A stretch of DNA of 64,000 nucleotides from Alphaproteobacteria bacterium (GCA_027483355.1 JAIXUW010000292.1:222226-286225), one strand, 5' to 3'. Shown: positions 9,904 to 55,294, counted from the first letter of the stretch. The notes: generated from the letters alone by a model not told the origin. Numbers and translations: made by a program.

Positions 9904-10851
9904 ATGGAACCGGATACTAAATCGCATGACCCGACCGCTTCTTCCGAGAACGCAAACACGCCGAACGCTGGCGCCGTTGAATCGCGTGAATCGTGTGAAC
10001 CATGTGATTCTGTCATCTCGGAGAACAGTGCGCCACAAGAAACCGTAAAAGACAAATTGGAGCAAAGCCTTACATGCCCTGTGTGCATGACAATATGCGC
10101 GCCTCCTACCCAGAGCTGCGTCAACGGGCATTTGATATGCGCTACATGCAAATTGAAAATACCACAATGCCCTATATGTTCAGCCGTTTATGGTGCCCAA
10201 AACAAGCTTACGCGACAATTGGGATTGGAAAGTTTGGCCGAGTTCTCCGGAATCACGTGCAACTGCCCCAACGCTGCTCTAGGGTGCACTCTAACGTTCA
10301 AGTACGACGCCAAAGTTGTCAGAGAGCACCTTAAAACATGCGTCTATCGCGAAGTTTTCTGTCCATGTTGCGACAGGATTACAATGGTAAAAGATCTAGA
10401 TGACCATTACAAGAAAATGTTCGAAACGGAAAAGGTTGGTGTCCAGAACTTATACCACTACCACTCGCCCAACAACACTTTTACGTTTTCGGATAATGAT
10501 GGCGCGAATGCACGCCTCGGCAAAGATTCCATTTTCTTGAAACCTGGTACTATCATCAATTCAGTCGGCACGAAAAACCACACGTATTTCTACGCATATC
10601 ATTTGTCTACACCAGAGCAAAGCGGAAAATGGTGGTCATATTCCGTCACGCTGACCTCGGACAATTTTCCACCGCAGACGTTAAAAACGTTTACAGTGCA
10701 CCTGAAAACGGCCCAAAGCATATATAAACCTTTATGCTTGAAGTTGGATGAAAAGATGCTCAGAGAAGCAAGTAACAAAAAATTTCGATTTGAAACCAGC
10801 GCAGAAGACGTTGATCCCGAATACCTGCCAAGTCTTCAGAAATACGTTTAA
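9904..10851 (+). CDS. SIAH/SINA-type RING E3 ubiquitin ligase-like protein
   Basis: ORF 9811..10851; ATG at 9904 (MEPDTKSH...). RING: CPVCMTICAPPTQSCVNGHLICATCKLKIPQCPIC (compare the SIAH C3HC4 with C-x-GH-x-x-C). It is followed by a SIAH-type zinc finger, CNCPNAALGCTLTFKYDAKVVREHLKTCVYREVFCPCC...HYKKMF, and a C-terminal substrate-binding-like region. Confidence 0.8.
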   Translation: MEPDTKSHDPTASSENANTPNAGAVESRESCEPCDSVISENSAPQETVKDKLEQSLTCPVCMTICAPPTQSCVNGHLICATCKLKIPQCPICSAVYGAQNKLTRQLGLESLAEFSGITCNCPNAALGCTLTFKYDAKVVREHLKTCVYREVFCPCCDRITMVKDLDDHYKKMFETEKVGVQNLYHYHSPNNTFTFSDNDGANARLGKDSIFLKPGTIINSVGTKNHTYFYAYHLSTPEQSGKWWSYSVTLTSDNFPPQTLKTFTVHLKTAQSIYKPLCLKLDEKMLREASNKKFRFETSAEDVDPEYLPSLQKYV

Positions 10852-10997
10852 GTGCACAGATTGGTGACAATGTAAATCCCTTTTCCAATGTAAAAAAGTT
10901 CGCGCTTTACTCGCGGGGGTATCAAAACTTCGCGTCTAGTTTTTTTTTGTCGAGTCACCGTCTCATTCACTAATTTTCACCTCTTATCTTGTCCATC

Positions 10998-11671: not shown

Positions 11672-12286
11672 CTAAGCCTGTCTGAGAAAGTGATCCTTGT
11701 AGACCATTTGCATTTCACCGCCAACGTATCCGTTGCATAGATGCGTGTGACTGTAATACTCAATTCGGTCCATAACAATCTTTGTTGGACGAGTCACGCC
11801 TTCGGGCCGCAAACACACGCCTTCTCCATTTTCGAGAACAAAGTATTTGTTCATTCGAACGCAGAAGAAATCATTGTACTTGACTATATCGTCGAACAAG
11901 ACATCTAAAAAATGCAAGGTGTACACGAACGCGTCCTTGCCGTCCACCTTGCAACGCGAGAGATACCTCTTCTCGTACTCCTCGTCGAGAATAGGCTCGC
12001 CTAATCCTTTAGACGTAACCATATTCTCGCCCTTGCTACGAAAGTAGGCGTAATTGATGCTGTCGTGCGCAAATCGTAGCTCGCGGCGCACCCAAAACTT
12101 GTCCCATACAAGAACCAAGCGCAGTTGCTTGGAATCCAAATTAGGGCCCTTCGAGACGGAACTTGAAGTTGATTTACGCAAAAGATTACCCATGATTGCC
12201 GCGTATGCACTGACGTAAGAAACCAACCCAAAAAAGGCGCGATTCCGTTTAGAAAACCACATGGGCGGATGGGGTGCGGCGAACAT
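11672..12286 (-). CDS. hypothetical protein, tandem paralog (family with 12290..12844)
   Basis: 204-aa ATG ORF. Shares YL....VDGK.A.VY.LH.L..L.DDIV.....F.VR with the upstream gene. Its start lies 3 nt after that gene's stop. Confidence 0.6.
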   Translation of the reverse strand: MFAAPHPPMWFSKRNRAFFGLVSYVSAYAAIMGNLLRKSTSSSVSKGPNLDSKQLRLVLVWDKFWVRRELRFAHDSINYAYFRSKGENMVTSKGLGEPILDEEYEKRYLSRCKVDGKDAFVYTLHFLDVLFDDIVKYNDFFCVRMNKYFVLENGEGVCLRPEGVTRPTKIVMDRIEYYSHTHLCNGYVGGEMQMVYKDHFLRQA

Positions 12287-12289
12287 AAA

Positions 12290-12844
12290 TCAGTTTATAA
12301 CAAAATGATTACGGTAAATCTTTACAGGTTTGTCACGTATCCATCCTTCTTCGAGATACTTGACCTCGTATTCTTGTGCGGTGTCCTCTTCCTCGCAAAA
12401 CTCTTCGGTTACCGAAATCGTGCCGTCGCACAGAACGACGGCCTCGTTGCCATCCGGTAACGAAAACGGAATGTGTGATCTCACATAAAAGTTGTTTTCG
12501 TGCTCCACAATGTCGTCGTACAGCCATTGCAAGTAATGGAGCCTGTACACCATAGCAGGTTTTCCGTCCATTGTGATTGGGAAAAGATACTTTCGAATAT
12601 AGTCCGCCTCGGCAAGATGGGGTTGTGTTTCACTGGGTCCGGGCACTCCATTTCGCACAGTAAATCCGTCGGTCCCGTAGCGCGCAATTGTAGAGTCTGC
12701 GAGCTTAAAATCTGCATTGTAACGGACGTAGAACTTATCTTGGTGATTGACGTAGGACGTATTGCTCCGTGTTCTGAAATCGGCGCAGAACTCGGAAACA
12801 ACAGCAGACTCGGATTCACAGTCGCATATTTCAGTTCGGAGCAT
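12290..12844 (-). CDS. hypothetical protein, tandem paralog (family with 11672..12286)
   Basis: ORF 12290..12898 starts on TTG; first ATG at 12844 (MLRTEICDCE...). KYLFPITMDGKPAMVYRLHYLQWLYDDIVEHENNFYVR aligns to RYLSRCKVDGKDAFVYTLHFLDVLFDDIVKYNDFFCVR. Confidence 0.6.
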   Translation of the reverse strand: MLRTEICDCESESAVVSEFCADFRTRSNTSYVNHQDKFYVRYNADFKLADSTIARYGTDGFTVRNGVPGPSETQPHLAEADYIRKYLFPITMDGKPAMVYRLHYLQWLYDDIVEHENNFYVRSHIPFSLPDGNEAVVLCDGTISVTEEFCEEEDTAQEYEVKYLEEGWIRDKPVKIYRNHFVIN

Positions 12845-12947
12845 TGCGTGCAAAAAAACTTTAGAACAGGTCGGACGCAAATTGAAAGAACTGTACAAAA
12901 AACCTTAAACCTAGTCAAGAGAATTTTTTTTTTTACGTGGGGTAGTT

Positions 12948-14363
12948 TTACTCAACAAACACTAAATCTATCCCGGTCTCCCGCGACACAATTTTGCGCC
13001 CAGAAGCGCATTGTATAATAACATGGCATGTCACAGACGGTGCTGGCCCGATGGGCGGCACGGAGCCGTCCCATTTTGCGACAAATTCCACGCTGTTCAA
13101 CTTTGAGTCGTACTCTATTCCCAAATACGCCTGGCATGTTTCCCAGAATTCGTCTTTTGCATCCCAGGTTGCTTCAAAATACGCGTCTCTGTTTACGGTG
13201 GGATACATGCACGGGTCGTACACAATCAAGTCCGGGAAGAACGCGAATCTCGAGTTGGCCGTGTCTTTTGTCACAGGTATGCTCGTAACAATATAAGGTA
13301 TGTAATCCCCGAGCACAGCTTCATTTCCTAACCGGGGACATGCTCCTGCGTCCACATCCAATTTGCCGTCGATCACGTCTTCAGCGGCTGCCACAGCAAC
13401 TGTAGTCACGCACGTGCGTTCGTCTGTGTAACACTGCGCACTATATGTCCAGTATTCAGAACCAGAAAAGTCGTCCATGTTGTACCTGCCTTGAGTGGCA
13501 AATGCCTGAGCGTTTGTCTTAATAAACGCAATGTCATTTGTCAAAGCTAAAAGGTTGCTCTCGATATAACAATCGTTCCTTGTTCGACATGGTCGAGGCA
13601 AATATTCGCTATTGCGGTAATTCCATCGAACGCCCGAAGTCAGGCACTCCTGCGTTGAGTAATACATGAGTTGCACCCATCTCAGATTCGGGCGCTCGAG
13701 ATCTATATCGCAGCCAAAAGACCAGATATACTCAGCGCTTTCGGTTTCGTCCAAATTGTACATGAGCAAACGCGGTGGCGCTTCATTGGATCGATACTTT
13801 GCAATTTGTTCGGGAACGCGCTCGCTTGTCATTGTCGGAATAGCATAGTTCTCTTGTTCGACAAGTTCAGCGAAAAAGTCAAACGGAAACGTGCTTTGGA
13901 TCGCGACGGTATCGGACATGAACGGTTCAAACGTGCGATACGGTGTTCCACTCGAGTCGAACACTAGAGTGGCTCCGCATACAAGGCCGTTGAAACAGGA
14001 CAAGACAGTATAATCTTGAAATTCTTTGTATTCCGGATAGACATTTCGCCAGAAAACATCGGGATCGCATGGACACGGGCTCGCTTCTCTGCCGGGTAAT
14101 AGTTCAAATGTGTAGCCGACCTTGCCTTCGTCGGCTGTAATAACAGCTAGCGCAGGGAGAAAAGGAGCACGGTCGATAGTGCAACCGGAACAAAATTCTT
14201 TGTTTGACATGAATTCAGTGATAGTGTGCCGCGCAGTGAACCCTGTAGGATTCTCGACGAGACCTCTTGCAAAGCACGTGACTGGATTGTACTCGCCAGA
14301 TCCAGCAGCCGAGTTTAGTGCCGCGGCTACGGCTACGAAAAGTACAATCCACTTTAGTCTCAT
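12948..14363 (-). CDS. secreted Cys-rich protein (signal peptide)
   Basis: 471-aa ATG ORF. The N-terminus MRLKWIVLFVAVAAALNSAAGS is signal-peptide-like. There are many Cys and aromatic residues and no further hydrophobic segment. Confidence 0.7.
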   Translation of the reverse strand: MRLKWIVLFVAVAAALNSAAGSGEYNPVTCFARGLVENPTGFTARHTITEFMSNKEFCSGCTIDRAPFLPALAVITADEGKVGYTFELLPGREASPCPCDPDVFWRNVYPEYKEFQDYTVLSCFNGLVCGATLVFDSSGTPYRTFEPFMSDTVAIQSTFPFDFFAELVEQENYAIPTMTSERVPEQIAKYRSNEAPPRLLMYNLDETESAEYIWSFGCDIDLERPNLRWVQLMYYSTQECLTSGVRWNYRNSEYLPRPCRTRNDCYIESNLLALTNDIAFIKTNAQAFATQGRYNMDDFSGSEYWTYSAQCYTDERTCVTTVAVAAAEDVIDGKLDVDAGACPRLGNEAVLGDYIPYIVTSIPVTKDTANSRFAFFPDLIVYDPCMYPTVNRDAYFEATWDAKDEFWETCQAYLGIEYDSKLNSVEFVAKWDGSVPPIGPAPSVTCHVIIQCASGRKIVSRETGIDLVFVE

Positions 14364-14465: not shown

Positions 14466-17400
14466 TTACATTTTACGCATGCGAGTAGTCGCTGTCTTAG
14501 AATTGTAATTACGAGCTCTGGGTGCAGTGGGAGGAGACGGCGGAGGCGTTATTTTGCTTCTCTTTGCGGGCACAGGAGTTCTGCAGCATAACGAATGGAA
14601 TGCGACAGCCACGATTCCGAAACCTGTAATAGCAACAATCACGTATAGAGGAATCAACGCCGTGGGCTGAGCGGGCGGCGTGACGGGCGGCGTCGGAGGT
14701 CCAGTCTGCAATACAATCGTGTGGAATTCTCCCAGTCCGGACAGAAGAATGGAATTTCCGATTTCAGTCGACAATTCTCTGACTGTGACAGGGAATCGAA
14801 CCGATCCACTTGTGTCCGTGTAATCAATGCCATTCACGGCAATGCCGACTTGACCTGAACTATTACGACCCCATGTTTGGATTTCGAACACGGCCTGTGT
14901 CTGACCGGGCTTGTACAATAAAACATGTTCGACTCCGCACCACACGCCGCGAGTGGCAGTCGTATTCGCGACAATTTGAGGCACTGAACTGTATGCCAAT
15001 TCCGCAACTGTTTTGTTCTGACCCAATTGACCGTATTGGTTGGAGCCCCAGGCGTACACGGAAGACGTGTCCTGAGAAATATACAGTCCGTGCGCGCCTC
15101 CTGCGCAAATGTATTGGGTCTGAAGTTGAACGTTGACAGAATCTGGCGGGATACCGAATGCAATCATGGGCGCGTTTCTATTAGGCGACATTTCAGTCGG
15201 ATCGGCCAATTGGCCCCTGTCGTTATTTCCCCACGAGTAGACGACGACAGGGGATCTTTCAGTGACCGCGAACATGAAATCGGAACCGCATGAGATGAGT
15301 CGAATTGACTCGGCTAACATGACTAGTCTGGGCGTTTCCGTGTTGTTATACGACCCGATTCCCAACTGGCCCTTGTCATTCGATCCCCAAGTCCATACCG
15401 CGCCGTCAGTCGACAAAATAGCCGAATAGTTGGCTCCAGCGCACGCTTGTTTGATTTCGAATAATACAGACACGCGCACACGCGAATTGGGAAGAGCCAC
15501 GGCGGCGCGTTCGGTTCTCGGAGCCAGATCCGCGACTCCAAGCTGCCCGAAATCGTTATTACCGTATGTGATTACAAAATCTTCAATCACATTAGGCGGA
15601 TTCTTGGTGACCGTTCTCACGACGGCTACACTGTGCTCCTGACCTCCTGCCAGAAAGTTGATCGCCACATTACGCGTGTTGGAAAACCAAAACTCGATTC
15701 TCTGGCGAATATAATCGAGTTGCGGTGAAATGCGAGGAAGAGGCACGGACACGGTCGTGTTCGACGCCGGGTCAAGCTGAGCGTTTAGGTTTGAACCCCA
15801 TTCGTAGTATCTTTCGCCGGACAGTTTCATAAGATTGTGTTTGTAGCCAACTGCCAGTACTTGCAGGCTTTGAACGGAATTCACGTCGACAAGTTGAATG
15901 AGAGGGTCGATCGAGGACGAGTTGGAGATGACTCTACCCAGTTGACCTAAATCGTTACCACCCCATGAACCGAGATAGTTGCCGTTGACGTTGGGTGGTT
16001 CGATCGGCGGTGGAACAGGCGGCGACACTGGTGCATTTTGAGGAGGCGCGACTGGCGGGGTTTGAGGCGGTGCGACTGGTGGATTCTGGGGAGGCGCGAC
16101 TGGTTGACTTTGAGGCGGAGCGACCGGAGGTGAAACAGGCGGAGCCACTGGCGGCTCTACGGGTGGGGAAACTGGCGGTGCCTGAGGCGGGGCTACTGGT
16201 GGTGACACAGGCGGAGCCACGGGTGGTGCCTGAGGAGGTAAAACCGGAGGCGCGACTGGCGGTTCCACAGGTGGCGAACCTGGAGGAGCTTGTGGTGGTA
16301 ACACAGGAGGGGCGACAGGCGGGGAAACTGGAGGTGCAACAGGCGGGGAAATTGGAGGTGCCTGAGGTGGTAAAACCGGAGGAGCAACTGGCGGCTCTAC
16401 TGGCGGTGCGACAGGGGGAGCCACAGGAGGGGCGACTGGAGGTGACACAGGTGGAGCCACGGGAGGTGCCTGAGGCGGTTCTACAGGCGGAGCCACAGGA
16501 GGCGCTTGAGGAGGCAAAACTGGAGGGGCAACAGGAGGTGTTTGTGGAGGCGAAACTGGTGGAGCGACAGGCGGTGATTGTGGAGGCGAAACCGGAGGCG
16601 CGACAGGCTGCGCTTGAGGCGGTAAAACTGGCGGCGCAACCGGTGGTTCTACAGGCGGTGCCACAGGAGGTGACTGAGGTGGTGAAACCGGGGGCGCGAC
16701 TGGTGGAGCCACTGGAGGTGCTTGAGGTGGTGAAACTGGCGGGGCCACTGGTGGTGCTTGTGGCGGTGAAATCGGTGGAGCTTGAGGAGGCGAAACCGGG
16801 GGCGCAACTGGCGGGGATTGCGGCGGATTCTGGGGAGGCGCGACTGGTGGGGCTAAAGGCGGTGCTACAGGCGGCGAAACCGGAGGCGCAACAGGCGAGG
16901 CGACCGGTGGGGCCACAGGAGGGGCTTGAGGCGGATTTTGCGGAGGAGCCACAGGAGGGGCCTGAGGCGGTGAAACTGGAGGCGCGACTGGCGGTGCAAC
17001 CGGGGGTGCAACTGGAGGTGCCTTGGGCGGAGCGACCGGAGGCGCGACAGGTGCCGCTTGAGGAGCCAAAACCGGAGGTCCAACCGGAGGCGCGACCGGA
17101 GCGGGAGGTAGCACGACCGTTCTAAACCTCCAAACGTCATTATAGTATGTTGTCGGAGTTGTAAACGCGTTCTGCCCGCCTATTAAACCCGTGTTAATAT
17201 TCGAAGGTGAGAAAGGAGATCCTCCGGGCTGTACAAACACTTCGCCGGAAAGTCGCCCGAACGGGAAGTTTAACGCCGAGAACACATTCGGCGCCGGGTA
17301 TGTCCCAAGTGCGTTGCTTGCATTTCCTGCCATCCAAAAAAACTGATCCGAATCATAATCATACGCCCACAGATGCCCGCGGGCGGTTGTTTGGGATTGA

Positions 17401-18449
17401 ACCACCATGTACAACAGGCGCGAATTTGCATTGACCGTGAACATGGCACCGTTTGAATATATTAGCGCAGGATTTCCAAGTGCGTATTGAAGCGTGAAAA
17501 ATTCGGCTGGGCACGGCGCAGCAGCTCCAGCGCCTCCTCCTCCGACCCACGTCCAAATGTTTGTTGCTAAAGTATACAAAAACATGAAACACGAATTTGT
17601 CGTACTTGACGTAGTATACATGGCCAAGTGCGTCGTGTTGTAGGGCGTGTAGGTGCATTGTTTTCGATTACAAGGCAATGCGATTGTTCCTGCGTTCGAA
17701 ACGCGTTTTGTTCCAGCATTTGGAGTCGAAACACCGTCATCTCTCATACATGCGAACAATAAAGTAGAACTGTTGAATCTGTACATGTCCGATCTCAGTG
17801 CACCTCCGGAAGTGGAAGAGCGCCCACCGCTCAGATAAACAATATTATCCAGCGCCGCGGAAACATATCTCATATGGAATACAGCGTATTCGGCTCGTCT
17901 GCCGAATCGAGGAACTCCACAGGAAGGTCCCTGTGTAGTTTGAGTTATAAAAATCCACGTAGGCGACAATAAAGACGTGTCGAGTCTCCACAAATCGCCT
18001 TGGACAGATCCTGCTGAATTATATCCACCATATAAGAATAAAAATCTGTTTTGAAACGTCCAAGCGCCCATGGAGTAACGCGAGCCGATGGAGCTAGGAA
18101 TAGATATCGCGACATTTGTAGCATTACTGCCCGTGACCCAATTCCACGAAGAAGTTGTTGTTTGATATCGAAAAGTGTTAGCGTAAACATTTACACCGTT
18201 CCTGCCGCCCATAATATACACGATAGAATTATTGGGATTTGTGTTGTCCGTAAGCGTCCACAGCGCAAACTCAGACCGCGTAAATGGCGTATTTGGAATC
18301 GCATTCGATGCTCCGCCGCTCAAGTACGCCCATTGTGGTTGAAGCAATGATATTGGCTGCGATACACCAAAGCCGAGAAGCACGGCAACTGAAAAAATCA
18401 CAACCGTTACACATTGGTACACATACCACGCTTTTTTGTGTGTATACAT
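14466..18449 (-). CDS. type-I membrane protein: Kelch-like propeller + (PPV/APP)n stalk + 7-blade RCC1-like propeller + TM anchor
   Basis: ORF 14466..18602 overlaps the stop of the upstream gene; the ATG at 18449 gives a signal-anchor (VTVVIFSVAVLLGFGVS).
- Kelch-like units: VYIMGGRNG...W, LFLYGGYNSAGSVQGDLWRLD, VYLSGGRSS...MYRF.
- About 375 aa of PPVAPPVSPPQAPPVAPP repeats.
- Seven RCC1 signatures: WGGNDLGQLG, WGSNLNAQLD, YGNNDFGQLG, WGSNDKGQLG, WGNNDRGQLA, WGSNQYGQLG, WGRNSSGQVG.
- C-terminal TM segment LIPLYVIVAITGFGIVAVAF plus a basic tail. Confidence 0.8.
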   Translation of the reverse strand: MYTHKKAWYVYQCVTVVIFSVAVLLGFGVSQPISLLQPQWAYLSGGASNAIPNTPFTRSEFALWTLTDNTNPNNSIVYIMGGRNGVNVYANTFRYQTTTSSWNWVTGSNATNVAISIPSSIGSRYSMGAWTFQNRFLFLYGGYNSAGSVQGDLWRLDTSLLSPTWIFITQTTQGPSCGVPRFGRRAEYAVFHMRYVSAALDNIVYLSGGRSSTSGGALRSDMYRFNSSTLLFACMRDDGVSTPNAGTKRVSNAGTIALPCNRKQCTYTPYNTTHLAMYTTSSTTNSCFMFLYTLATNIWTWVGGGGAGAAAPCPAEFFTLQYALGNPALIYSNGAMFTVNANSRLLYMVVQSQTTARGHLWAYDYDSDQFFWMAGNASNALGTYPAPNVFSALNFPFGRLSGEVFVQPGGSPFSPSNINTGLIGGQNAFTTPTTYYNDVWRFRTVVLPPAPVAPPVGPPVLAPQAAPVAPPVAPPKAPPVAPPVAPPVAPPVSPPQAPPVAPPQNPPQAPPVAPPVASPVAPPVSPPVAPPLAPPVAPPQNPPQSPPVAPPVSPPQAPPISPPQAPPVAPPVSPPQAPPVAPPVAPPVSPPQSPPVAPPVEPPVAPPVLPPQAQPVAPPVSPPQSPPVAPPVSPPQTPPVAPPVLPPQAPPVAPPVEPPQAPPVAPPVSPPVAPPVAPPVAPPVEPPVAPPVLPPQAPPISPPVAPPVSPPVAPPVLPPQAPPGSPPVEPPVAPPVLPPQAPPVAPPVSPPVAPPQAPPVSPPVEPPVAPPVSPPVAPPQSQPVAPPQNPPVAPPQTPPVAPPQNAPVSPPVPPPIEPPNVNGNYLGSWGGNDLGQLGRVISNSSSIDPLIQLVDVNSVQSLQVLAVGYKHNLMKLSGERYYEWGSNLNAQLDPASNTTVSVPLPRISPQLDYIRQRIEFWFSNTRNVAINFLAGGQEHSVAVVRTVTKNPPNVIEDFVITYGNNDFGQLGVADLAPRTERAAVALPNSRVRVSVLFEIKQACAGANYSAILSTDGAVWTWGSNDKGQLGIGSYNNTETPRLVMLAESIRLISCGSDFMFAVTERSPVVVYSWGNNDRGQLADPTEMSPNRNAPMIAFGIPPDSVNVQLQTQYICAGGAHGLYISQDTSSVYAWGSNQYGQLGQNKTVAELAYSSVPQIVANTTATRGVWCGVEHVLLYKPGQTQAVFEIQTWGRNSSGQVGIAVNGIDYTDTSGSVRFPVTVRELSTEIGNSILLSGLGEFHTIVLQTGPPTPPVTPPAQPTALIPLYVIVAITGFGIVAVAFHSLCCRTPVPAKRSKITPPPSPPTAPRARNYNSKTATTRMRKM
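15990..17125 (-). repeat. coding 9-bp-periodic proline-rich repeat (PPV/APP/PPQ units)
   Basis: The DNA is a long degenerate GGNGGNNNN-type periodic tract. It keeps the antisense frame open too (spurious 376-aa ORF 15995..17125). Confidence 0.85.
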
Positions 18450-18598
18450 GAATAGTATGTGTTTACTAGTATTATGAAAATATTTTACATGGGTAAAAAC
18501 TAGGCGAAAAATAAGTGTGAACTCGCGCGAGGGGTTGTTCCAAAAATGGAAGGTGTACACACACATACACCCCCCGGGGTGGGCGGGCGCGCACGCTT

Positions 18599-21500
18599 TC
18601 ACTCAACTCGGCGTTTTTTGGATTTGTCGTCTTCATCAGTGCTTGCATCAATTCTCTTCCGCTTGACAATGCGTTGTTCTGGAACAGCGCACATTTGATT
18701 CCAGAATTTAACGCGGTCGGGACCCACTTCGCTACTTTCGTCGAGACACAGCGCCAGTATTCGCAGACAACTATGTACGTCATTTTGAAGTTTTTGCACG
18801 ACCGCGAGCTTGTCGCCAGTGAAGTATTCGGTAAGCCGACTTGATAAAGGTATATCTCCTTTGAGAGGAGTTTCGACCGATTCTTCAACCAACCATTGCA
18901 ACATGTCGACATATTGCTTATTACGGTAGAGTTTGTCTACACAAGCCCTGCAAAATGATTTTACAGGCGCTTTGTCTGTCAATTTATCCAACAGCCTCAT
19001 GTAAACCGGGTTTTGTTGCGACAGCGCGTTGGTCGCCCATTCTCTGACTTGTAGGCATGTCATGTTCAAAACAACATTGAAAAGCGGTTTTGCTTTTGCC
19101 AGTAAGATGATCTTAAGTATAACGTCGTTTCTTGTCCTTCGTATAGTAAAACATTTGTCCATTCCGGAATTGATCCAAAGCCGATGCAACAAGTTATTCG
19201 AGTCATATTCAAATCCAGGCACTATTCGCATCGTTTTTGAGCCAATAGCAACCATGGGATAGGCATCCGCAAAGGCATCGCGCTCCAAATCGTCACTCTG
19301 CCATTGATTCACAGCGGAGCCTATATCCATTGCATATGAGGACAGAGGAAAATGCACAAGAAATCCAAACGCCGCGTCGCAGTATACTGACGGTAGACCC
19401 GATTTCAGCGTGGAATAATCCGAGCCGCGAACATAATTGATTTTCTGTCCTTTGTAGTCTCTTCCTTGTATCTTTGCATAATCAGACAACCCGACGCAAT
19501 ACACACCACAAAGGTATAAGTATTGTTGCAAGGTGTTGAAAAACACCTTTGCGGTCTGGCCGTGCGATGTCATCTCCCATCGATTTTGAAAATAGTCAAT
19601 CTCGGCCGTGATAAGATAACATCGGCGATCGTTTGGGTTGATCAGATTTTTCACCCATCCTTCTTCACTAGACATCTCGTCTTCGTAGTCCGGATAAAAT
19701 TTGTTCCATTCTGAAGAATAAAGTTCAAGTACGCGACAGAAAAAGCCGTTGATGCTACTAAACGAAAGATCAGGGTTTTGGTCTCTATCTTGGGTCCATT
19801 TTCCAAAGTTCAAATTCATCGGGCTAATAAAGGTCTCGACGTAGTTACTTGTTTTGTCTCCCCGAAGCTCTAACAGTAGCAACTGATCACCTGAAGTCTT
19901 GACCCATTGAATCTTTGAAGAATAGCTGCCCAATTCATGCGTGTCGAACAGTGGTATCCCTATAGCGCGTTCAGTTTGATTGAAAAAACGACTCGGCCCT
20001 TGAATGGTTTCCTTGTCCGAATTTTTCAAATCGTTTACGTATTCTCGAGTGTTCACAGGCCCGGCTATGGGGAAGGGCGTTCGGTCAAAAAAGACTCCAT
20101 ACACGCACTGCATAAACGCAGTGGCTTTGAACTCGTCAAATTTGCCGCCGGCGGAGCTCATATCAAGCCTGTAAATTTTTGCGCATATCGAAACGACGGC
20201 GTATCCCATGGCCGCATCGAGAATAATTCGTCCAGTCTCATAACGCGATCGGATCTGCGTTTCGCGTATTTTTGCGTTTCTATAAGTTCTTGAAAAAAAC
20301 GGGTAGGCGCGACGAGCATAGTCGGCAAACTGTGCATTTTCGTCAACGGTAAATTTACGTTCTTCCGGTAGGTTAAACTGTGGGAGTAGTGGAATGTTTG
20401 CCTCGAACATCTGGGGCAAGTCCAGAAACCCGTTGTTGCACGGCTTTCTGTCGTATGTCAGAGCACCCGTCTTAAACAACCGCAGCTGCTTATCGTCCAA
20501 ATGGTAGACTGGAATAAACGTTTTGGCACATTCTACAATTCCGACTTCGTCGGCAAGTTTTGCAAGTACAGGAAGCACGGCATACACGCATATGTTGTTT
20601 GGCCGTACCACAACTGTTTGAAATTCAGACAAACTTTCGATGAGTTCTTCTACCGTATGGCATTTTCTTTCCACTCGGGCGCCGACGGGCACGTAGCTGT
20701 TGCCGGAAAACTGCAACCAGTTAACCAGCACTACCGTTTTTCCATTTTGGTCTTTCTGATAATGGACGCTGAGTATACAAACGACTTTTGGTTCGCGCGC
20801 AACATAAGGCGAAATAATGCTAGCTGTGGGGATGGATCGCCGGCTTTCAAAGGCCAGTTCAAAGCCGAGGAATTGCTGGTTCTTTTCGGGGGCCGCGTGG
20901 TTATAATCCACAAACTTTCCCAGATTGAACAATCGAGTAAACGGTGCATTTCCATTAGCAGAGGCGATTGTCCATTCCAACAAATTTTCGAATGATGGAA
21001 CGCATCCCTGGACCGCCATTTGACGCCACTCAGGCGTGTTAAACGCGTTTGTATCGTCAATCAACATGCTTTGAAAGAGTTTTTGCCCCTTCTCGGACAT
21101 CATATATTCTCCAATGGTCCACGTTCGCGCGTAATCGGGTGAAAACCGCGTAAGCGGCGCCGATCGATCTGAAGGAGCTACGCGTGACATCAAGATCCAA
21201 TGATATTTTCGCAATTCCACGTACTCGTTGTTCTTCAAGTCATCTTTTTGCTTCAAGTCCAAGTATCGAACTGAAAAATCGTTCGATATACAATGCAGTC
21301 TCAAGAGCGTATTGTCCGTGTAAGTCGAAGTTCGAACATAATGCTTGTTGATGAGTTGCAAAGGGATCGCCTTAGAGTGACCAATTCGAACGTTGTCGTC
21401 CAAAACATCGATTTCGCCAAACTCATTTTTTTCCCACGGTCGTTTATCAAAAATTCCATTTGTGGGTTCGAATACAGCAGTGGCTTGTCGTGGCATACCA

Positions 21501-22054
21501 AAGCCTTCATGTGGTCTTGTGACCGAATTATACTTATTTTTTTGCGCAAATTCCGTCAAGATGCGCGTTGCGATCTGACAGATTTTTTGAACTGGAGTGG
21601 TAGCCGCGCCAAGTTGTTCCCCGGGTGCCGTCCACAACGTCTCCAGTCCCAATCGAATTACCTTTTTGCGATCAGGATAGTCTATCATGACAGAGTCAAA
21701 GTTTTTGTATCCGAGACCGTTGTTGTTCGTGTCGTCAGTTGGCAACGGGAATACAAATATAAAGGGACTCTTGTATGCCAAAAGTTTGGGCTCTAAACTG
21801 TCGATAACACGTGCTCGAATCTCTTTGGAGCGTTCAAATTCGTCTACGGGAGCGACAGCTGTCTGCTCCAAAAGCACAATGCGCGCAAAAGATTTTGCTT
21901 CCGGGATCGTGTCGCCGGGCACAAAATGATATTTACTAGTCGGATCGTGACACTTTTCCAGCTCGTCTGATAACATTTCTACGAAGCTGTCGAGAACGCG
22001 CGTCCTGACACTCTCGATGGGATGCAAATAGTCTGCGCAGATCGAAAACGACAT
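18599..22054 (-). CDS. large orphan protein, tandem paralog 1 (1151 aa), C-terminal NLS-like KRKR...KKRR
   Basis: ORF 18599..22108 starts on TTG; first ATG at 22054 (MSFSICADYLHP...). Collinear similarity to the upstream 1311-aa protein: FIFVFPLP/FIFPFPLG, IRLGLETLW/MRIGQETLW, ARTWTIGE/TRTWAVGE, VPSFENLLEW/APSFEMLFTW. No known domain recognised. Confidence 0.75.
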   Translation of the reverse strand: MSFSICADYLHPIESVRTRVLDSFVEMLSDELEKCHDPTSKYHFVPGDTIPEAKSFARIVLLEQTAVAPVDEFERSKEIRARVIDSLEPKLLAYKSPFIFVFPLPTDDTNNNGLGYKNFDSVMIDYPDRKKVIRLGLETLWTAPGEQLGAATTPVQKICQIATRILTEFAQKNKYNSVTRPHEGFGMPRQATAVFEPTNGIFDKRPWEKNEFGEIDVLDDNVRIGHSKAIPLQLINKHYVRTSTYTDNTLLRLHCISNDFSVRYLDLKQKDDLKNNEYVELRKYHWILMSRVAPSDRSAPLTRFSPDYARTWTIGEYMMSEKGQKLFQSMLIDDTNAFNTPEWRQMAVQGCVPSFENLLEWTIASANGNAPFTRLFNLGKFVDYNHAAPEKNQQFLGFELAFESRRSIPTASIISPYVAREPKVVCILSVHYQKDQNGKTVVLVNWLQFSGNSYVPVGARVERKCHTVEELIESLSEFQTVVVRPNNICVYAVLPVLAKLADEVGIVECAKTFIPVYHLDDKQLRLFKTGALTYDRKPCNNGFLDLPQMFEANIPLLPQFNLPEERKFTVDENAQFADYARRAYPFFSRTYRNAKIRETQIRSRYETGRIILDAAMGYAVVSICAKIYRLDMSSAGGKFDEFKATAFMQCVYGVFFDRTPFPIAGPVNTREYVNDLKNSDKETIQGPSRFFNQTERAIGIPLFDTHELGSYSSKIQWVKTSGDQLLLLELRGDKTSNYVETFISPMNLNFGKWTQDRDQNPDLSFSSINGFFCRVLELYSSEWNKFYPDYEDEMSSEEGWVKNLINPNDRRCYLITAEIDYFQNRWEMTSHGQTAKVFFNTLQQYLYLCGVYCVGLSDYAKIQGRDYKGQKINYVRGSDYSTLKSGLPSVYCDAAFGFLVHFPLSSYAMDIGSAVNQWQSDDLERDAFADAYPMVAIGSKTMRIVPGFEYDSNNLLHRLWINSGMDKCFTIRRTRNDVILKIILLAKAKPLFNVVLNMTCLQVREWATNALSQQNPVYMRLLDKLTDKAPVKSFCRACVDKLYRNKQYVDMLQWLVEESVETPLKGDIPLSSRLTEYFTGDKLAVVQKLQNDVHSCLRILALCLDESSEVGPDRVKFWNQMCAVPEQRIVKRKRIDASTDEDDKSKKRRVE

Positions 22055-22104
22055 TTTAGAGCGTTTGAGAAAACCTTTATATACATGAAGAAAACATATT
22101 TTTT

Positions 22105-25100
22105 TCAAAGCGGGCGGGTCTGGCGCAAAGGTTTTATTTGCGAAGATGAAGAAGAAGTCTTATTCTTGTTCTGTAGCATTTGTGCGTAAGATGTGAAGAG
22201 AGGGTTTTGGCTTGCTACCTGCTGTACACTGATGTTTGCAATGTTTGGACGTCTTGGCGCCGGGCGCGAGGAAACGTTTGTGTCGGACTGCCTGCTGACG
22301 CGATTTTGCACCGCGCTCCTCTCACTGGCCCTCGTGTACGGCACACGGTTTGGAATAGCAGCGTCAACATCCATTGCGTCGTCGGTATCGACACGGTTTG
22401 GAATAACAGCGTCGACGTCCATTGCGTCGTTGGTGCCAGTCTCCGCGAGGCGAGGGGAACTCGACGACAGGGCACGAAGAGAAGGACGATTGGTAATTGG
22501 TGGCTTTGGTAAGACCGCATTACTATCGTCTGAAGTGTTTCGTCTTGGCCTCTTTGCTTCCGGTGTCGCGTTTTCCTCGACGTTTTTCAGCAAAAGTATT
22601 CTTTCTTTTCTGGCCGGCGCAAGCTGTGGTAAAAATTTGGCCTTGCGGCTCCATTTCCTCGACGATCTAGTGTGTGTCTGGTTTTGCGCGGCCCATATGC
22701 TCAATTGCACACCACGTAGTTTAAACCAGGTTTGCGTCAATGCGTCCGACAGTTCAGATGAAAACCCCGATTCCGGGTCGGGTCTCTCTAAAAACGCCAT
22801 CCGAATAAACTCCTGTTCAAAATCAGTTATCCCACCAAGCGAGAATGCTGTTCTATCTTTCTTGGTCAAGAGATGCGAAAGCACCCATTCGACGCTTTCG
22901 TAGACTTCGCTGTCTTCATAGAGAGTTTCCAATGCGTATCGAAACGCATTAGTGTTGTTTTGATCGTCGGGGATGTCATACAACACGTCGATTAATTCGT
23001 TTGCATTCGACCCCTTTGGATATCTATAATCTGAATTCTTGTTAGATCGAAGAACCTCTTCGGAATTCCTGACGTATTCTTTCAGCTCTCCAATCGATAC
23101 GTTGAAACAAGCATTGATTGCCTTTCTAAAATTCAACATGAGTCGCATCCATACTTGAAATCTCGCGTTGACAACGTCCAAACTGAAAATGGCATTTTCA
23201 ATCGAAGAAACGCGGTCTTTGTTGTTGTCGTTGCCGGATTGTTTGATTTTTTCATCGCGATACCACTGTAGAACAGCCGGAAAGGTATCTTTTAGCTGCC
23301 CAGGTTCAAACGTCGTGTTCGCAATTTGCGACATTTCCTGGCCAGGACGAGGCCCGAATAGAGCCAAAAACCCAAACTTTGGCATGCTGTACAACGACGG
23401 CACAATTTCTTTAAACATTGCGTATGTGGCGCCATCAATGTAAAAGTGCCGGAAATATTTGTCTGTCCCGGAAATTCCCGAAGCGTCTTCAAGCATGAAG
23501 ACAAAGGCTCTGCTCACGTAACTTAATTGAGTGAGCAGTATGACCAAATATTCGGCTCTTAATCCGACGGCGTTCAATTCCCAACGACCCTGGAGTAATT
23601 GTAGTTCCGATGTCATCAAGGCGACATCTGTAGGTTTCATTGGATCATTGTTTTCCAAAACTGTTGTTCTGTTTCGTGTCAAGACAAACTCAAATCCGTT
23701 GACAAAAGGGTACACGAGGTCGGGGTCTTGATTGTAATTCTCGCTGGGTTCATCTTCGTCAGAAGACGTAGATATCGATCGCAGTAGACTTTTGCCATAA
23801 TTTGCGCAAGCAAGACGAACGGAAACTTTTGCATTAAACTTGGATCGCACTTCCCTCAATTTCACCAGCGCTAATTTTTTTCCAGCAAATGCCATCCAAG
23901 CAAATTTCTTTGTCTCATACTTTGCTTTCATTCGTTTGACATCGAAGTGATTGTCAAATCGATACTGCGCCTTGATTCCTAAACTAAGCTCGCGCTCGTA
24001 GACATATCTGGCCACAGAGTCCACCGCCACATTCGGATCCCAGTTAGAAAATGGTGTTTTGTCTTCTTGTCCGCCGCTGGCAAACTTTACTCCATTACCT
24101 CCCCTGTCTACGCCCATAGAGGGACCAAACATGGATGCCAGGACGGCGTATCTTCGACGCTCAATGTCACCCAGGTCTCTGCCGACCGTTTCAAATAGGT
24201 AGAAGGCACTACGTCTGGGATCTGTTCGAAACCCGGGAAGTTTGTCGTATACAAGACTCTTTGTAGGATCTTTTTTCGTGCGCTCAAGCAACGCTTTCCC
24301 AATGTAGGCTTGATAGTTTTCAAAGTCCGCCAGCGTGCCATTCTCGGCTTCTTCTTTTGACAATGTCTCGCGCTTGGAGAAAAGAGATTTTCCGAGGGCG
24401 TGAAGTGAGGCAACGTTCATAAATGCCTGGTCCTGGTACTCTGTCTGTGTTTCAAAGCTTTTACGCTGCATTGTAGACAGATGCGATACCGGGACGAAAA
24501 CTTTATAGATGGCTTGCTGCAATCCTACTCTGGCGTCCAATAACAATTGCACTCCCGAGACGCACATGTCAGCATCTTTCCACGCCTCGTCCTCAGTAAC
24601 AATCCATTCTAAAAACGATTCCATATTAGGCCAATCGTGTGGCACACGAGGTTTTCCCAGCTCGTCCACGTAACATTGTAAAGAAATCGCGTCTCTGGGC
24701 TTGGAATAGGTAACCACAATCGCTTTTCTCACATGGCTACGGCACTCCGTGTAATACTTGTCATCGACGCCTTCTGACTCAATAAGCTCTTGCGCGAGCG
24801 TAATGTCCGATCTACGTTGCAGATAAATGACAAACCCTGCTAACGAACGCGAATTGCGTATTTCAGCAAATCTTTGCGCTATAGGATCCTTCAAATCCAC
24901 ATGTATAGGAATCCCGCTAGCGCTGCACATGAGCCAAGTGAATAGCATTTCAAACGATGGTGCCACCCCTTGAGATGCTTGAATTCGATACTCTTCTGAA
25001 TTCAAACAAGATGGTCGGGTGCCCGCCAGCATGCGCTGAAATTCCGAGCGTATATTTGCATTTTCCAAAAGACCTTCACCCACTGCCCACGTACGAGTAA

Positions 25101-26040
25101 AGTCGATGCAATTCATCTTTCTGTACTCGTAAGATATTCGCTTCCTTGGCATGTTTTTCTTTTTTGGCTTGAACAACGTCTGGCGATTCATTAGAACCCA
25201 TGAAAGTTCCGCGCGTTCGTAGTAGGCTTCGTTGTCAAACTCTTCACGCGTGTCATTGTGATACTCCAACGTCGTCGTCCTAAAGTCCGATCCGATGAGA
25301 TAAAACACGACTCCGCTTCGGCCTCTGGATTCTTTGACAATTGATTGCGCGATTTCATGTCGTCTGACTAGATCCATCGGAACTGTACGCTCTTGTTCTA
25401 TTCGTTTCTCATCCCATCGAACGTTTACTTGATCATTTCGCAGCCTTTCAGCGTAACGTTTTCTGAGCGGCTTTTCTGTATAAGAACCGGACACGGCCTG
25501 AAAGGTCTTGTCGCCTAGAGGTCGAGTCAAGCCCGGGTTTTGTTCAACATACGGAGTTAACATTGTATGCAGCACCCTTGCCACTTGCTCAGCGGGAGTG
25601 GTGTCTTTCCAACTCGCCTCGGAACCAGATCGCCACAGCGTCTCCTGCCCGATTCTCATCACTCTGTCCTCGTCTTCGAAATTCACGATGATAGCTGGCA
25701 AGTTTTGGTACGAGTCGACGCGTTCTCCGAGAGGAAAAGGGAATATGAACACGTATTTCCCTTTATGCCGCTGAACCTGATTCTTGTGCAGATTTACAAA
25801 TAGAGCGCTTAGCTCGACTTCGTCTTGAGGCATTTTGGCAGGATAGAACAAGTCTAGGTCTACGAGAACGACCGTGGCTGCAGGAGCGTCCGAGCGGATG
25901 ACAAATTCGAACATCCGAGGCTCGTCGGGGTCCAGAATATTGACCAGTTGTTCATTTGCGTATTTAGTGAACAGTTTTAACGTAGGAGGTCTGCGAGCAG
26001 GGTCCACGCAGACATAGTCGACGACAACGTCGGCGTACAT
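22105..26040 (-). CDS. large orphan protein, tandem paralog 2 (1311 aa) with repeat/Ser-rich C-terminal extension
   Basis: ORF 22105..26058 starts on TTG; first ATG at 26040 (MYADVVVDYVCVD...). Paralogous to 18599..22054. The C-terminal ~200 aa are low-complexity and include the duplicated DAMDVDA(V/A)IPNRV. Confidence 0.75.
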   Translation of the reverse strand: MYADVVVDYVCVDPARRPPTLKLFTKYANEQLVNILDPDEPRMFEFVIRSDAPAATVVLVDLDLFYPAKMPQDEVELSALFVNLHKNQVQRHKGKYVFIFPFPLGERVDSYQNLPAIIVNFEDEDRVMRIGQETLWRSGSEASWKDTTPAEQVARVLHTMLTPYVEQNPGLTRPLGDKTFQAVSGSYTEKPLRKRYAERLRNDQVNVRWDEKRIEQERTVPMDLVRRHEIAQSIVKESRGRSGVVFYLIGSDFRTTTLEYHNDTREEFDNEAYYERAELSWVLMNRQTLFKPKKKNMPRKRISYEYRKMNCIDFTRTWAVGEGLLENANIRSEFQRMLAGTRPSCLNSEEYRIQASQGVAPSFEMLFTWLMCSASGIPIHVDLKDPIAQRFAEIRNSRSLAGFVIYLQRRSDITLAQELIESEGVDDKYYTECRSHVRKAIVVTYSKPRDAISLQCYVDELGKPRVPHDWPNMESFLEWIVTEDEAWKDADMCVSGVQLLLDARVGLQQAIYKVFVPVSHLSTMQRKSFETQTEYQDQAFMNVASLHALGKSLFSKRETLSKEEAENGTLADFENYQAYIGKALLERTKKDPTKSLVYDKLPGFRTDPRRSAFYLFETVGRDLGDIERRRYAVLASMFGPSMGVDRGGNGVKFASGGQEDKTPFSNWDPNVAVDSVARYVYERELSLGIKAQYRFDNHFDVKRMKAKYETKKFAWMAFAGKKLALVKLREVRSKFNAKVSVRLACANYGKSLLRSISTSSDEDEPSENYNQDPDLVYPFVNGFEFVLTRNRTTVLENNDPMKPTDVALMTSELQLLQGRWELNAVGLRAEYLVILLTQLSYVSRAFVFMLEDASGISGTDKYFRHFYIDGATYAMFKEIVPSLYSMPKFGFLALFGPRPGQEMSQIANTTFEPGQLKDTFPAVLQWYRDEKIKQSGNDNNKDRVSSIENAIFSLDVVNARFQVWMRLMLNFRKAINACFNVSIGELKEYVRNSEEVLRSNKNSDYRYPKGSNANELIDVLYDIPDDQNNTNAFRYALETLYEDSEVYESVEWVLSHLLTKKDRTAFSLGGITDFEQEFIRMAFLERPDPESGFSSELSDALTQTWFKLRGVQLSIWAAQNQTHTRSSRKWSRKAKFLPQLAPARKERILLLKNVEENATPEAKRPRRNTSDDSNAVLPKPPITNRPSLRALSSSSPRLAETGTNDAMDVDAVIPNRVDTDDAMDVDAAIPNRVPYTRASERSAVQNRVSRQSDTNVSSRPAPRRPNIANISVQQVASQNPLFTSYAQMLQNKNKTSSSSSQIKPLRQTRPL
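22343..22438 (-). repeat. 2 x 48-bp tandem repeat inside CDS
   Basis: acacggtttggaatagcagcgtcaacatccattgcgtcgtcggtatcg is followed by acacggtttggaataacagcgtcgacgtccattgcgtcgttggtgcc. It encodes the duplicated ...DAMDVDA(V/A)IPNRV motif. Confidence 0.8.
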
Positions 26041-26138
26041 TTCTGGGTATTTTTTCAAACCAAAAAGCCCTTAGTTGTCTCTACGCTAGTGCTTTTCCTT
26101 TCTGAGCCGCGAGAATGCACATTTTTATTATTTACAAG

Positions 26139-30585: not shown

Positions 30586-30618
30586 GGCTTTTTTATACAC
30601 ACATATATATGTAATAAT

Positions 30619-30654
30619 ACACACACACACACACACACGCACACACACACACAC
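30619..30654. repeat. (AC)n microsatellite
   Basis: acacacacacacacacacgcacacacacacacacac lies between two convergent genes. It generates the spurious ORF 30517..30699. Confidence 0.9.
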
Positions 30655-30676
30655 ATACAAAAACCGGGAAACGCGC

Positions 30677-40276: not shown

Positions 40277-40653
40277 TTTCCGGGCACGGGAGCGGTACGG
40301 GAACCGGAAACAAAAAAAAACTGGGCCGAACACAAAACACTGTGTGTTAGACACCGCAAAACCGACCAGCGCGTTCGAATGTTATCAAAAAGACGTACAA
40401 TACAATGTTCTAAAGAATAGACAGCTCAAAATCGAGGAGACGCGATGAATTGAAATTAACCAAGCGCCATTTTTCTGCTGTTGTCCAAACTTGCGCGCAA
40501 TTTCCCCCCTTTTGTCGACCCCCTATCGCCAACCCACATGTTTTTACAAATCATTTATATCCAAATATGTACACAAATCGATAGAACATCGAGAACTCGA
40601 TATAATACACTGAGTGGGATGAGAGGAGGAATTACAAAATGTAAACCAAGAGC

Positions 40654-47350: not shown

Positions 47351-47376
47351 CAATAAACTCTTATGTGCTCGAAAAT

Positions 47377-47448
47377 GCCGGCGTGGTTCAATTGGTAGAA
47401 TACCTGGTTGTGGCTCAGGCGACGATGGTTCGATTCCACCCGCTGGCA
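47377..47448 (+). tRNA. tRNA-His (anticodon GTG)
   Basis: Manual cloverleaf:
- acceptor gccggcg/cgctggc (one G-U)
- D arm gttc-aattggta-gaat
- anticodon arm cctgg-ttGTGgc-tcagg
- 4-nt variable region
- T arm gatgg-ttcgatt-ccacc (one A-C mismatch, B-box GGTTCGATTCC)
- discriminator A
There is no encoded G-1 or CCA, which is the eukaryote style. Confidence 0.7.
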
Positions 47449-47453
47449 TTGCG

Positions 47454-47530
47454 GACGGCTTAGCTCAGGTGGGATAGTGCTTCATCACGCGCGTATGGGG
47501 AGGTCGCTGGTTCGACCCCAGCAGCTGTCG
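47454..47530 (+). tRNA. tRNA-like gene with abnormal 11-nt anticodon loop (isotype undetermined)
   Basis: Manual fold:
- acceptor gacggct/agctgtc (one G-U)
- U8-A9
- D arm gctc-aggtggga-tagt (3 bp)
- anticodon stem cttca/tgggg (5 bp, two G-U)
- loop tcacgcgcgta (11 nt, contains the palindrome ACGCGCGT)
- variable region aggtc
- perfect T arm gctgg-ttcgacc-ccagc
It starts 5 nt after tRNA-His and is followed by a T5 run. Confidence 0.5.
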
Positions 47531-50919: not shown

Positions 50920-51012
50920 CACATGTGATTATTTATTTGTATACTCCGAAAGCTAAAAAAAAAGAAGGCGAGAGTCAAGTCCGACCCGGGACCGCGTTCT
51001 ATTTTTAGCTCG

Positions 51013-55118: not shown

Positions 55119-55294
55119 GTGTGGCGCAAAATTTTTTTTTCAAGAGTGCCGTGTGTAAAATTAAAAATGAAGTTAAAACGAGCACGTTTCGTTGGTCGTG
55201 AAAAAGGGGAGCATCAATTGGATTATACTCTTTCTGTGCGCGCGCGGTTTTTTTTTGTATTAGACCTGCCAAAGTGAGCCAAAAGATATAACGA

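Follow-up and report, generated by a model that had tools for sequence, protein, structure and literature searches.

The 64,000-nucleotide stretch analysed here (GCA_027483355.1, JAIXUW010000292.1:222226-286225; hereafter the window), deposited under the name Alphaproteobacteria bacterium, carries on its minus strand a gene for a 1327-residue protein in which a signal-like N-terminal segment, a Kelch-type propeller, a long proline stalk, an RCC1-like propeller and a C-terminal transmembrane helix with a basic tail follow one another in one open frame (Table 1). We regard it as an evenly balanced proposition that this protein is a single-pass, type I-like membrane glycoprotein, forming a long attachment or adhesion fibre and encoded by a virus-like large DNA genome that uses the eukaryotic secretory pathway. 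A preliminary description of the window had proposed the five modules from signal or anchor to transmembrane helix, and all of them, including the seven blades of the RCC1 part, were recovered at their expected coordinates. The combination of signal, Kelch propeller, tetrapeptide rod, RCC1 propeller, transmembrane helix and tail was absent among all matches examined; the domain combination is new, but the design, that of a stalked single-pass surface adhesin, is familiar.

The gene is continuous. An open reading frame (ORF) scan of the window finds the minus strand from 14466 to 18602 to be a single uninterrupted frame. With the ATG at 18449 as start, seven residues precede the first hydrophobic segment. 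A second in-frame ATG, at 18566 and 33 nt past the stop codon of the upstream gene, would add 39 residues and is the less likely start. Within the repeat array that encodes the stalk, the remaining two sense frames are closed. By Kyte-Doolittle analysis, the protein holds exactly two hydrophobic segments, at residues 8-29 and 1265-1287.

The distribution of charges around these two segments argues for a defined topology. The N-terminal segment has n, h and c regions, with K5 and K6 preceding the hydrophobic core, an h-region of about 18 to 22 residues, and small residues (G26, G28 and S30) that, as read from the sequence, are compatible with the -3/-1 cleavage rule; the next charged residues lie about 30 positions beyond it. 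At the other end, the linker, helix and tail (residues 1251-1327) contain 10 Lys or Arg and no Asp or Glu, and all 10 are located in the tail. Because positive charges lie to the outside of both segments, the 1230 residues between them are predicted to be luminal or extracellular whether or not the first segment is cleaved. The C-terminal helix, with its positively charged cytoplasmic side, conforms to a predicted type I-like single-pass topology.

The N-glycosylation sequons point in the same direction. When the window protein is compared with its two metagenomic relatives, the RCC1 domain shows seven N-x-S/T sequons, of which five persist in all three orthologues, three of them by way of sequon-preserving substitutions (NTT/NST, NNT/NDS, NSS/NTS/NVS). 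In contrast, none of 17 control [D/Q/S/T/G]-x-S/T triplets is retained in the three orthologues (hypergeometric p of about 5e-4). The conserved sequons support a eukaryotic secretory route and, together with the charge distribution, the earlier suggestion that both propellers are placed outside the cytosol.

The RCC1-like propeller matches the Pfam models WD40_RLD (PF25390 / PF00415 group; E 1e-51, 176.8 bits, cut-off 150) and RCC1 (138.9 bits, cut-off 21.7), and seven [WY]GxNxxxQ[LV] signatures are spread over residues 829-1201. An AlphaFold2 model built from a 68-sequence alignment reaches a predicted local distance difference test (pLDDT) score of 85 and a predicted template-modelling score of 0.88. 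In Foldseek this model matches RPGR (4jhn) end to end (E 4e-28, target template-modelling score 0.86), and the seven-blade RCC1-like domains (RLDs) of HERC2, RCC1 and UVR8 likewise align with it over its full length. The modelled structure is that of a closed seven-blade RLD fold. Activity as a guanine nucleotide exchange factor for Ran is unlikely because the predicted location is extracytoplasmic. The domain is 54 to 56% identical to that of the two relatives, which also keep the PxPP(V/I)xPP core of the juxtamembrane linker and a hydrophobic segment at the position equivalent to the transmembrane helix. In the tail, the pattern K..K.SPP.SP....R is common to the three orthologues, as is a C-terminal KM after basic residues (RMRKM / KRRKM / KRKKM). 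A PTAP motif in the tail was considered as a late-domain signal and rejected, as it is not conserved in the relatives, and the LQTG ahead of the helix is not an LPXTG sortase signal.

The Kelch propeller is more difficult to recognize. Pfam places Kelch motifs in residues 74-303, with Kelch_4 (27.2 bits, cut-off 21.6) and Kelch_1 (20.6 bits, cut-off 20.1) just over threshold; Kelch_3, Kelch_2 and both whole-propeller models stay under their cut-offs, the latter at about 33 bits against 50. An ordinary homologue search with the Kelch half gave no match at E<=1e-3, even the protein itself being absent, because of the wrong gene call in the source databases. An exhaustive HMMER search of 1.84 billion representatives yielded 46 distant matches (best E 3e-16), and all seven of those 46 that were scanned against Pfam are Kelch proteins. 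A blade hidden Markov model (HMM) built from four of the distant matches detects six consecutive units, at residues 37-107, 108-168, 181-236, 238-304, 326-375 and 376-446 (independent E-values 3e-8 to 3e-3). AlphaFold modelling of this half from the single sequence, without an alignment, gave an unusable model (pLDDT 30), so that the six blades are counted from the sequence. Of the two propellers for which structural models had been envisaged, the RCC1 part has thus been modelled well and the Kelch part has not.

The stalk is 48.5% proline (182 of 375 residues) and consists of four-residue units, among them 37 APPV, 12 SPPV, 7 SPPQ and 7 APPQ. The spacing from one PP to the next is four in 78 of 86 cases, and the amino acid autocorrelation has its maxima at lags 4, 8 and 12. 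The DNA sequence is more strongly autocorrelated at lag 12 (0.56) than at lag 9 (0.39), and all periods reported for the array by Tandem Repeats Finder (TRF) are multiples of 12. The preliminary description was correct in seeing a degenerate, periodic proline repeat here, but the unit is xPP(V/Q) with a period of 12 bp and not (PPV)n with a period of 9 bp. Runs of at least three prolines occur only in the final units, Ser accounts for 21 of the 375 residues and Ser plus Thr for 6%, and a check of the array composition revealed no contiguous-proline glycomodules of the Ser-Pro(3-5) type. A phmmer match of the stalk to circumsporozoite NANP repeats was discarded as a low-complexity artefact of the shared four-residue periodicity. 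A polyproline II (PPII) helix rises 0.31 nm per residue, and with this rise a rod of 375 residues could reach about 115 nm.

As DNA, the array is old. It is 66% GC with heavily scrambled synonymous codons; the 37 APPV units are encoded by 29 distinct 12-mers, and no exact DNA repeat exceeds 24 nt. Its higher-order periods, 36-108 bp in length, show that it has grown by duplication of blocks, and so do duplicated blocks in the arrays of the two relatives described below, one of 48 bp (92% identical) in L003 and one of 60 bp in L004. It had been predicted that the array would vary in length through slippage or recombination. Simple slippage is less likely because the codons are diversified and the longest exact repeat is so short, whereas a block-wise change in length is plausible.

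Table 1. Features of the stalked-protein gene and its immediate surroundings, with positions counted from the first letter of the window.
Feature	Position	Strand	Basis or remark
Coding sequence, 1327 residues plus stop codon (14466-14468)	14466..18449	-	One open frame; start is the ATG at 18449
Putative signal peptide or signal anchor, residues 1-30 (MYTHKK + WYVYQCVTVVIFSVAVLLGFGV + S)	18360..18449	-	Kyte-Doolittle peak at residues 7-36
Divergent Kelch-type beta-propeller, probably of six blades, residues 37-446	17112..18341	-	Pfam, HMMER matches, blade HMM
Proline stalk, residues 446-820, about 93 tetrapeptides xPP(V/Q)	15990..17114	-	Repeat analysis
Seven-blade RCC1-like propeller, residues 821-1250, with a helical insertion in blade 2 (residues ~909-921)	14700..15989	-	Pfam, motifs, AlphaFold, Foldseek
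Short proline-rich juxtamembrane linker PPTPPVTPPAQPTA, residues 1251-1264	14658..14699	-	Read from sequence
Transmembrane helix, residues 1265-1287	14589..14657	-	Kyte-Doolittle up to 2.43
Basic cytoplasmic tail, residues 1288-1327, with juxtamembrane CC, SPPxSP motif and terminal (K/R)(K/R)KM	14469..14588	-	Charge count, alignment
Secreted protein, 471 residues, 18 Cys, N-terminal classical signal peptide	12948..14363	-	Immediate downstream gene
Spurious antisense ORF, 376 residues, GTG start, low-complexity	15995..17125	+	Created by the repeat

Two relatives of the protein were identified, both at about 55% identity. One (P0002, on contig L003) comes from a European lake metagenome. The other (L004), a Tara Oceans scaffold, was found in the JGI metagenomes with a hand-made degenerate ITYGNNDFGQLG pattern, which matched one Tara contig; an alignment-derived pattern gave no match in the JGI metagenome scan. 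Both relatives have the tetrapeptide array, the RCC1 propeller, the proline-rich linker, the transmembrane helix and the basic tail. None of the 185,579 GTDB species genomes of bacteria and archaea contained the motif, and IMG/VR likewise gave nothing when scanned with the Kelch half, with the Cys-rich neighbour or with a degenerate RCC1 motif. Two Logan contigs represent the window's own strain; they are 100% identical to the window and come from freshwater mesocosm metagenomes (PRJNA767443).

The gene for the stalked protein adjoins that for a secreted, Cys-rich protein, as the preliminary description had noted, and the pairing extends beyond the window: the Cys-rich gene lies directly downstream of the stalked-protein gene in all three of the window, L003 and L004. 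The orthologue in L003 (2093-3529) is 40% identical with conserved cysteines, and of that in L004 (3-224, minus strand) only the start is present. The window's Cys-rich protein contains no transmembrane segment and no N-glycosylation sequon, has no Pfam or PHROG match, and retrieved only itself in a homologue search. It is a possible partner of the stalked protein, as judged from this gene order.

Protein databases hold only a truncated, 454-residue version of the gene (P0001). In both L001 (2-316) and L003 (2-418), gene callers took the antisense frame of the repeat, and the real gene was cut to 454 or 492 residues. The full architecture is absent from the searched protein databases because the callers use this antisense frame and restart the real gene inside the array. 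Likewise, exact look-ups found no record of the full stalked protein, of the 1809-residue protein described below or of the 1151-residue protein encoded upstream.

It had been argued that RCC1 and Kelch propellers are normally intracellular. This premise holds for eukaryotic RCC1 proteins but fails for the closest relatives of the present protein, as the nearest homologues of both propellers are secreted bacterial proteins with T9SS (type IX secretion system), PKD, Big, fn3, CARDB or DUF11 domains, and phage tail fibres, too, contain RCC1-like propellers. After the two orthologues, the best RCC1 matches are bacterial (about 30% identity, E down to 1e-70), many of them with PKD, Big, fn3 or T9SS domains; none of the 120 RCC1 matches listed has a Kelch-named Pfam family, as checked against the Kelch accessions found here. 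Similarly, five of the seven scanned Kelch matches are surface proteins of bacterial type with T9SS, CHU_C, DUF11, CARDB or PKD domains. The bacterial RCC1 and Kelch proteins examined, however, use bacterial sorting signals, and none has a tetrapeptide proline stalk or a C-terminal transmembrane helix followed by a long basic tail.

Viral RCC1 proteins offer a different likeness. The best structural matches of the RCC1 model in BFVD are RCC1 proteins of uncultured tailed phages, and at 16 to 18% identity the model also matches fibre proteins, among them the Pseudomonas phage Littlefix tail fibre and, in phage PollyC, a protein resembling the T7 tail fibre. In such fibres, as here, a seven-blade propeller is carried outside the cytosol on a virus fibre, but they have an N-terminal tail adaptor and lack the signal peptide, the transmembrane helix, the proline stalk and the Kelch head. 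BFVD also contains RCC1-like propellers of large DNA viruses of eukaryotes, namely RCC1 proteins with and without an F-box from metagenomic genomes of Marseillevirus, Pithovirus, Orpheovirus and Klosneuvirus. As judged by the F-box, these are cytosolic adaptors; a signal, a stalk and a transmembrane helix are absent from them.

Likenesses in design are also found among animal surface proteins and viral envelope proteins. Attractin and MEGF8 are type I membrane proteins of animals with a Kelch propeller in the ectodomain; the Attractin/LZTR1 propeller model of Pfam matches the stalked protein weakly (E 6e-8, 32.8 bits, under the 50-bit cut-off), and the CUB, EGF, PSI and C-type lectin domains of the animal proteins are absent from it. 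Herpesvirus gC and pneumovirus G are single-pass proteins whose binding region is held off the envelope by an extended, probably glycosylated stalk rich in Pro, Ser and Thr. The present protein has no homology to either and differs from them in its regular tetrapeptide array with little Ser and Thr; its propellers have no counterpart there.

Among algal proteins, pherophorins and other hydroxyproline-rich glycoproteins of Volvox and Chlamydomonas are secreted, glycosylated proteins with two globular domains on a proline-rich rod (PMC9818292). In the stalked protein, by contrast, Kelch and RCC1 propellers make up the globular parts, the repeated unit is xPP(V/Q) and not Ser-Pro(n), the chain is predicted to be membrane anchored, and the genome is virus-like; no pherophorin domain is found among its Pfam matches. 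MST3, which forms the core of the ciliary mastigoneme of Chlamydomonas, has a membrane-tethered extracellular PPII shaft with its N terminus distal, and PPII helices can span hundreds of nanometres (PMC11015965). It differs in its PKD2-like channel anchor, its MST1 coat and its Ig-like and lectin domains, and bears no sequence relationship to the stalked protein. Pherophorins and MST3 are thus parallels in design, and neither is homologous.

The genome around the gene is for the most part without annotation. The NCBI source contig measures 292,368 bp; the window contains 48 tightly packed ORFs over 85% of its sequence, hardly any of which matches a Pfam or PHROG model. The annotated minority consists of a subtilase, a kinase-like protein, a Sina-type RING/zinc-finger E3, a dual-specificity phosphatase, ankyrin repeats, an HD domain, DUF285 and small AAA-like matches. 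Eukaryote-type signalling genes in this set (the Sina/SIAH-like RING and zinc-finger E3 at 9904-10851, plus strand; the dual-specificity phosphatase at 50179-50919, minus strand; and a weak protein-kinase match at 40654-42030, minus strand) point to a eukaryotic host. Shine-Dalgarno-like motifs are missing from all 48 upstream regions; position -3 is most often A (22 of 48 genes), and AATAAA or ATTAAA occurs downstream of 8 of the 48 genes, against a background of 3.5%. We infer that the source is a large DNA virus, or a virus-like element, of an uncultured kind with a eukaryotic host.

Two further candidate surface proteins, which the preliminary description had also listed, are found in the window, both with hydrophobic segments. 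The 1809-residue protein (55295-60724, plus strand) has an N-terminal transmembrane segment (residues ~59-85, type II-like), 37 N-x-S/T sequons and a long, fibre-like body rich in Ser, Thr, Asn and Gly with recurring '...LNPAG..V.(L/F)N.K...' units; its C-terminal part resembles a 939-residue protein of L003 (36% identity over 135 residues). The subtilase (32769-34493, minus strand; Peptidase_S8, E 2e-21) has hydrophobic segments at both ends and could be a membrane-anchored processing protease.

We envisage the following for the stalked protein. The N-terminal hydrophobic segment would direct the chain into the endoplasmic reticulum, and the C-terminal helix would anchor it, leaving the 40-residue basic tail in the cytosol or in the interior of a virion. 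The seven-blade RCC1-like propeller would then sit directly on the membrane, the 375-residue array would extend from it as a rod of polyproline-II type, and the Kelch propeller, with its predicted six blades, would form the distal tip. Such a fibre would carry its ligand-binding head well away from the membrane and so serve to attach or adhere to cell surfaces. Possibly, the membrane-proximal propeller and the always-adjacent Cys-rich protein together build the base of a complex.

Several observations weigh against this picture. All three short-read contigs terminate within the array, those of the window's own strain at window position 16325, and because of this the length of the array, the junction between Kelch propeller and stalk, and the N-terminal halves of the relatives are without independent confirmation. 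The junction and the array length rest on one assembly, and the covered part of the relatives comprises stalk, RCC1 propeller, transmembrane helix and tail, with the Kelch head outside it. With 22 residues, the core of the first hydrophobic segment is longer than is usual in signal peptides; if the segment is uncleaved, the head is also tethered and the stalk loops. The total number of sequons in the protein is not significantly above the expectation from composition. Moreover, the source contig was deposited with bacterial metagenome-assembled genomes (MAGs), and neither a prolyl hydroxylase nor a glycosyltransferase was seen in the window. Since Pfam and PHROG reveal no hallmark gene (capsid, packaging ATPase, polymerase, portal or terminase) among its 48 ORFs, the element is unclassified and its viral nature is inferred.

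The same protein, with the same topology, might be placed not on the virion but on the plasma membrane or wall of the infected cell, where it would alter adhesion, aggregation or the matrix, or block superinfection, its rod mimicking the hydroxyproline-rich wall proteins of the host. The topology evidence fits a virion and a cell surface alike, and many large DNA viruses have their membrane beneath the capsid, with no room for the display of a 100-nm fibre. A dumbbell with a proline-rich rod is, in addition, typical of algal matrix proteins (PMC9818292). Nevertheless, we believe that this location is rather unlikely, as the anchored 1809-residue fibre with its 37 sequons and the doubly hydrophobic subtilase look like parts of a particle-surface set, and the stalk is devoid of the Ser-Pro(3-4) motifs of wall glycoproteins. 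In the opposite direction, the attachment-fibre reading can be taken further: the stalked protein and its Cys-rich partner might together serve as the complex for receptor binding or entry in an undescribed lineage of large, membrane-bearing DNA viruses that infect aquatic protists or algae in lakes and the ocean, with a rod of about 100 nm that is hydroxylated and glycosylated by the host, mimics the fibres of host walls or agglutinins, and is tuned in length by block duplication to span the surface coat of the host. We consider this extended version unlikely and offer it as speculation.

A contig of bacterial or phage origin, for instance from a lineage without Shine-Dalgarno motifs such as Bacteroidota, would turn the protein into an ordinary bacterial surface adhesin assembled from RCC1 and Kelch modules. 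The closest homologues of both propellers are indeed bacterial secreted proteins, several with T9SS signals, and the top BFVD structures belong to uncultured tailed phages; the source contig shares its BioProject with 426 bacterial MAGs, and missing Shine-Dalgarno motifs and A-rich start contexts would also suit Bacteroidota. Against this, the protein carries a 40-residue tail in place of a T9SS, LPXTG or other bacterial sorting signal, and its N-glycosylation sequons, which are specific to the lineage, are conserved. The 64 kb contain no housekeeping or phage structural genes and almost nothing with a Pfam or PHROG match, but do encode a Sina-type E3 and NLS-like (nuclear localization signal-like) basic tails, and the motif searched for is missing from the 185,579 bacterial and archaeal genomes. 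Such an origin strikes us as improbable. The least probable explanation, to our mind, is an assembly artefact in which a Kelch-stalk gene and a stalk-RCC1-transmembrane gene were fused in frame through the repeat. While three independent short-read assemblies break within the array, with no second assembly across it, and the database gene calls never hold the full protein, the longest exact repeat of 24 nt is well under the usual assembly k-mers, so that the path through the array is resolvable. Furthermore, the frame stays open for 1125 bp with the other two sense frames closed, no other proline-rich sequence exists in the window, and the signal-bearing N-terminal half and the transmembrane-bearing C-terminal half are complementary.

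Some features of the surroundings deserve mention in their own right. Upstream of the stalked-protein gene lie three co-oriented ORFs of 1151, 1311 and 545 residues (18599-27776, minus strand); none of the three proteins has a Pfam or PHROG match, and a PDB search with the two large ones was empty. The 1151-residue protein ends in an NLS-like KRKRIDASTDEDDKSKKRRVE stretch (KRKR...KKRR). On the other side of the gene pair, two tandem ORFs of about 200 residues (11672-12286 and 12290-12898, both minus strand) share motifs (...VYRLHYLQWLYDDIVEHENNFYVRS... and ...VYTLHFLDVLFDDIVKYNDFFCVRM...); they resemble the products of a local gene duplication just beyond the downstream end of the pair and are absent from the corresponding position in L003. 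The region 47376-47530 (plus strand) contains a tRNA-His gene and, after a gap of 5 nt, another, tRNA-like gene, which has an enlarged anticodon loop (11-nt insertion) and is given the 4-base anticodon 'cgcg' by ARAGORN; its score with the Rfam tRNA model, 31.1 bits, is just over the gathering score.

Homopolymer A/T runs of at least 8 bases are concentrated between genes: 11 of 13 are intergenic, while 15% of the window is intergenic (examples at 10940-10948, 40312-40320, 50955-50963 and 55248-55256). Several are coding-strand T8-9 tracts located 36-50 nt upstream of a start codon, although the stalked-protein gene is without one, and the intergenic T runs may represent a promoter or terminator element. 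An interrupted (CA)n microsatellite at 30618-30659 separates the convergent genes 28546-30585 (plus strand) and 30677-32665 (minus strand).

In summary, our analysis carries a warning for annotation: calling of the antisense frame truncates the real gene, and this architecture, and probably similar ones, are thereby invisible in protein databases. If the fibre reading is true, the stalked protein would be a candidate for the attachment fibre of large DNA viruses that form an unclassified group in freshwater and marine plankton and whose genes are almost all unannotatable. A recombinant Kelch head could then serve as a probe and a concrete handle for finding the host. Likewise, the protein would provide a system for studying how the reach of viral or cell-surface adhesins depends on a regular proline rod.

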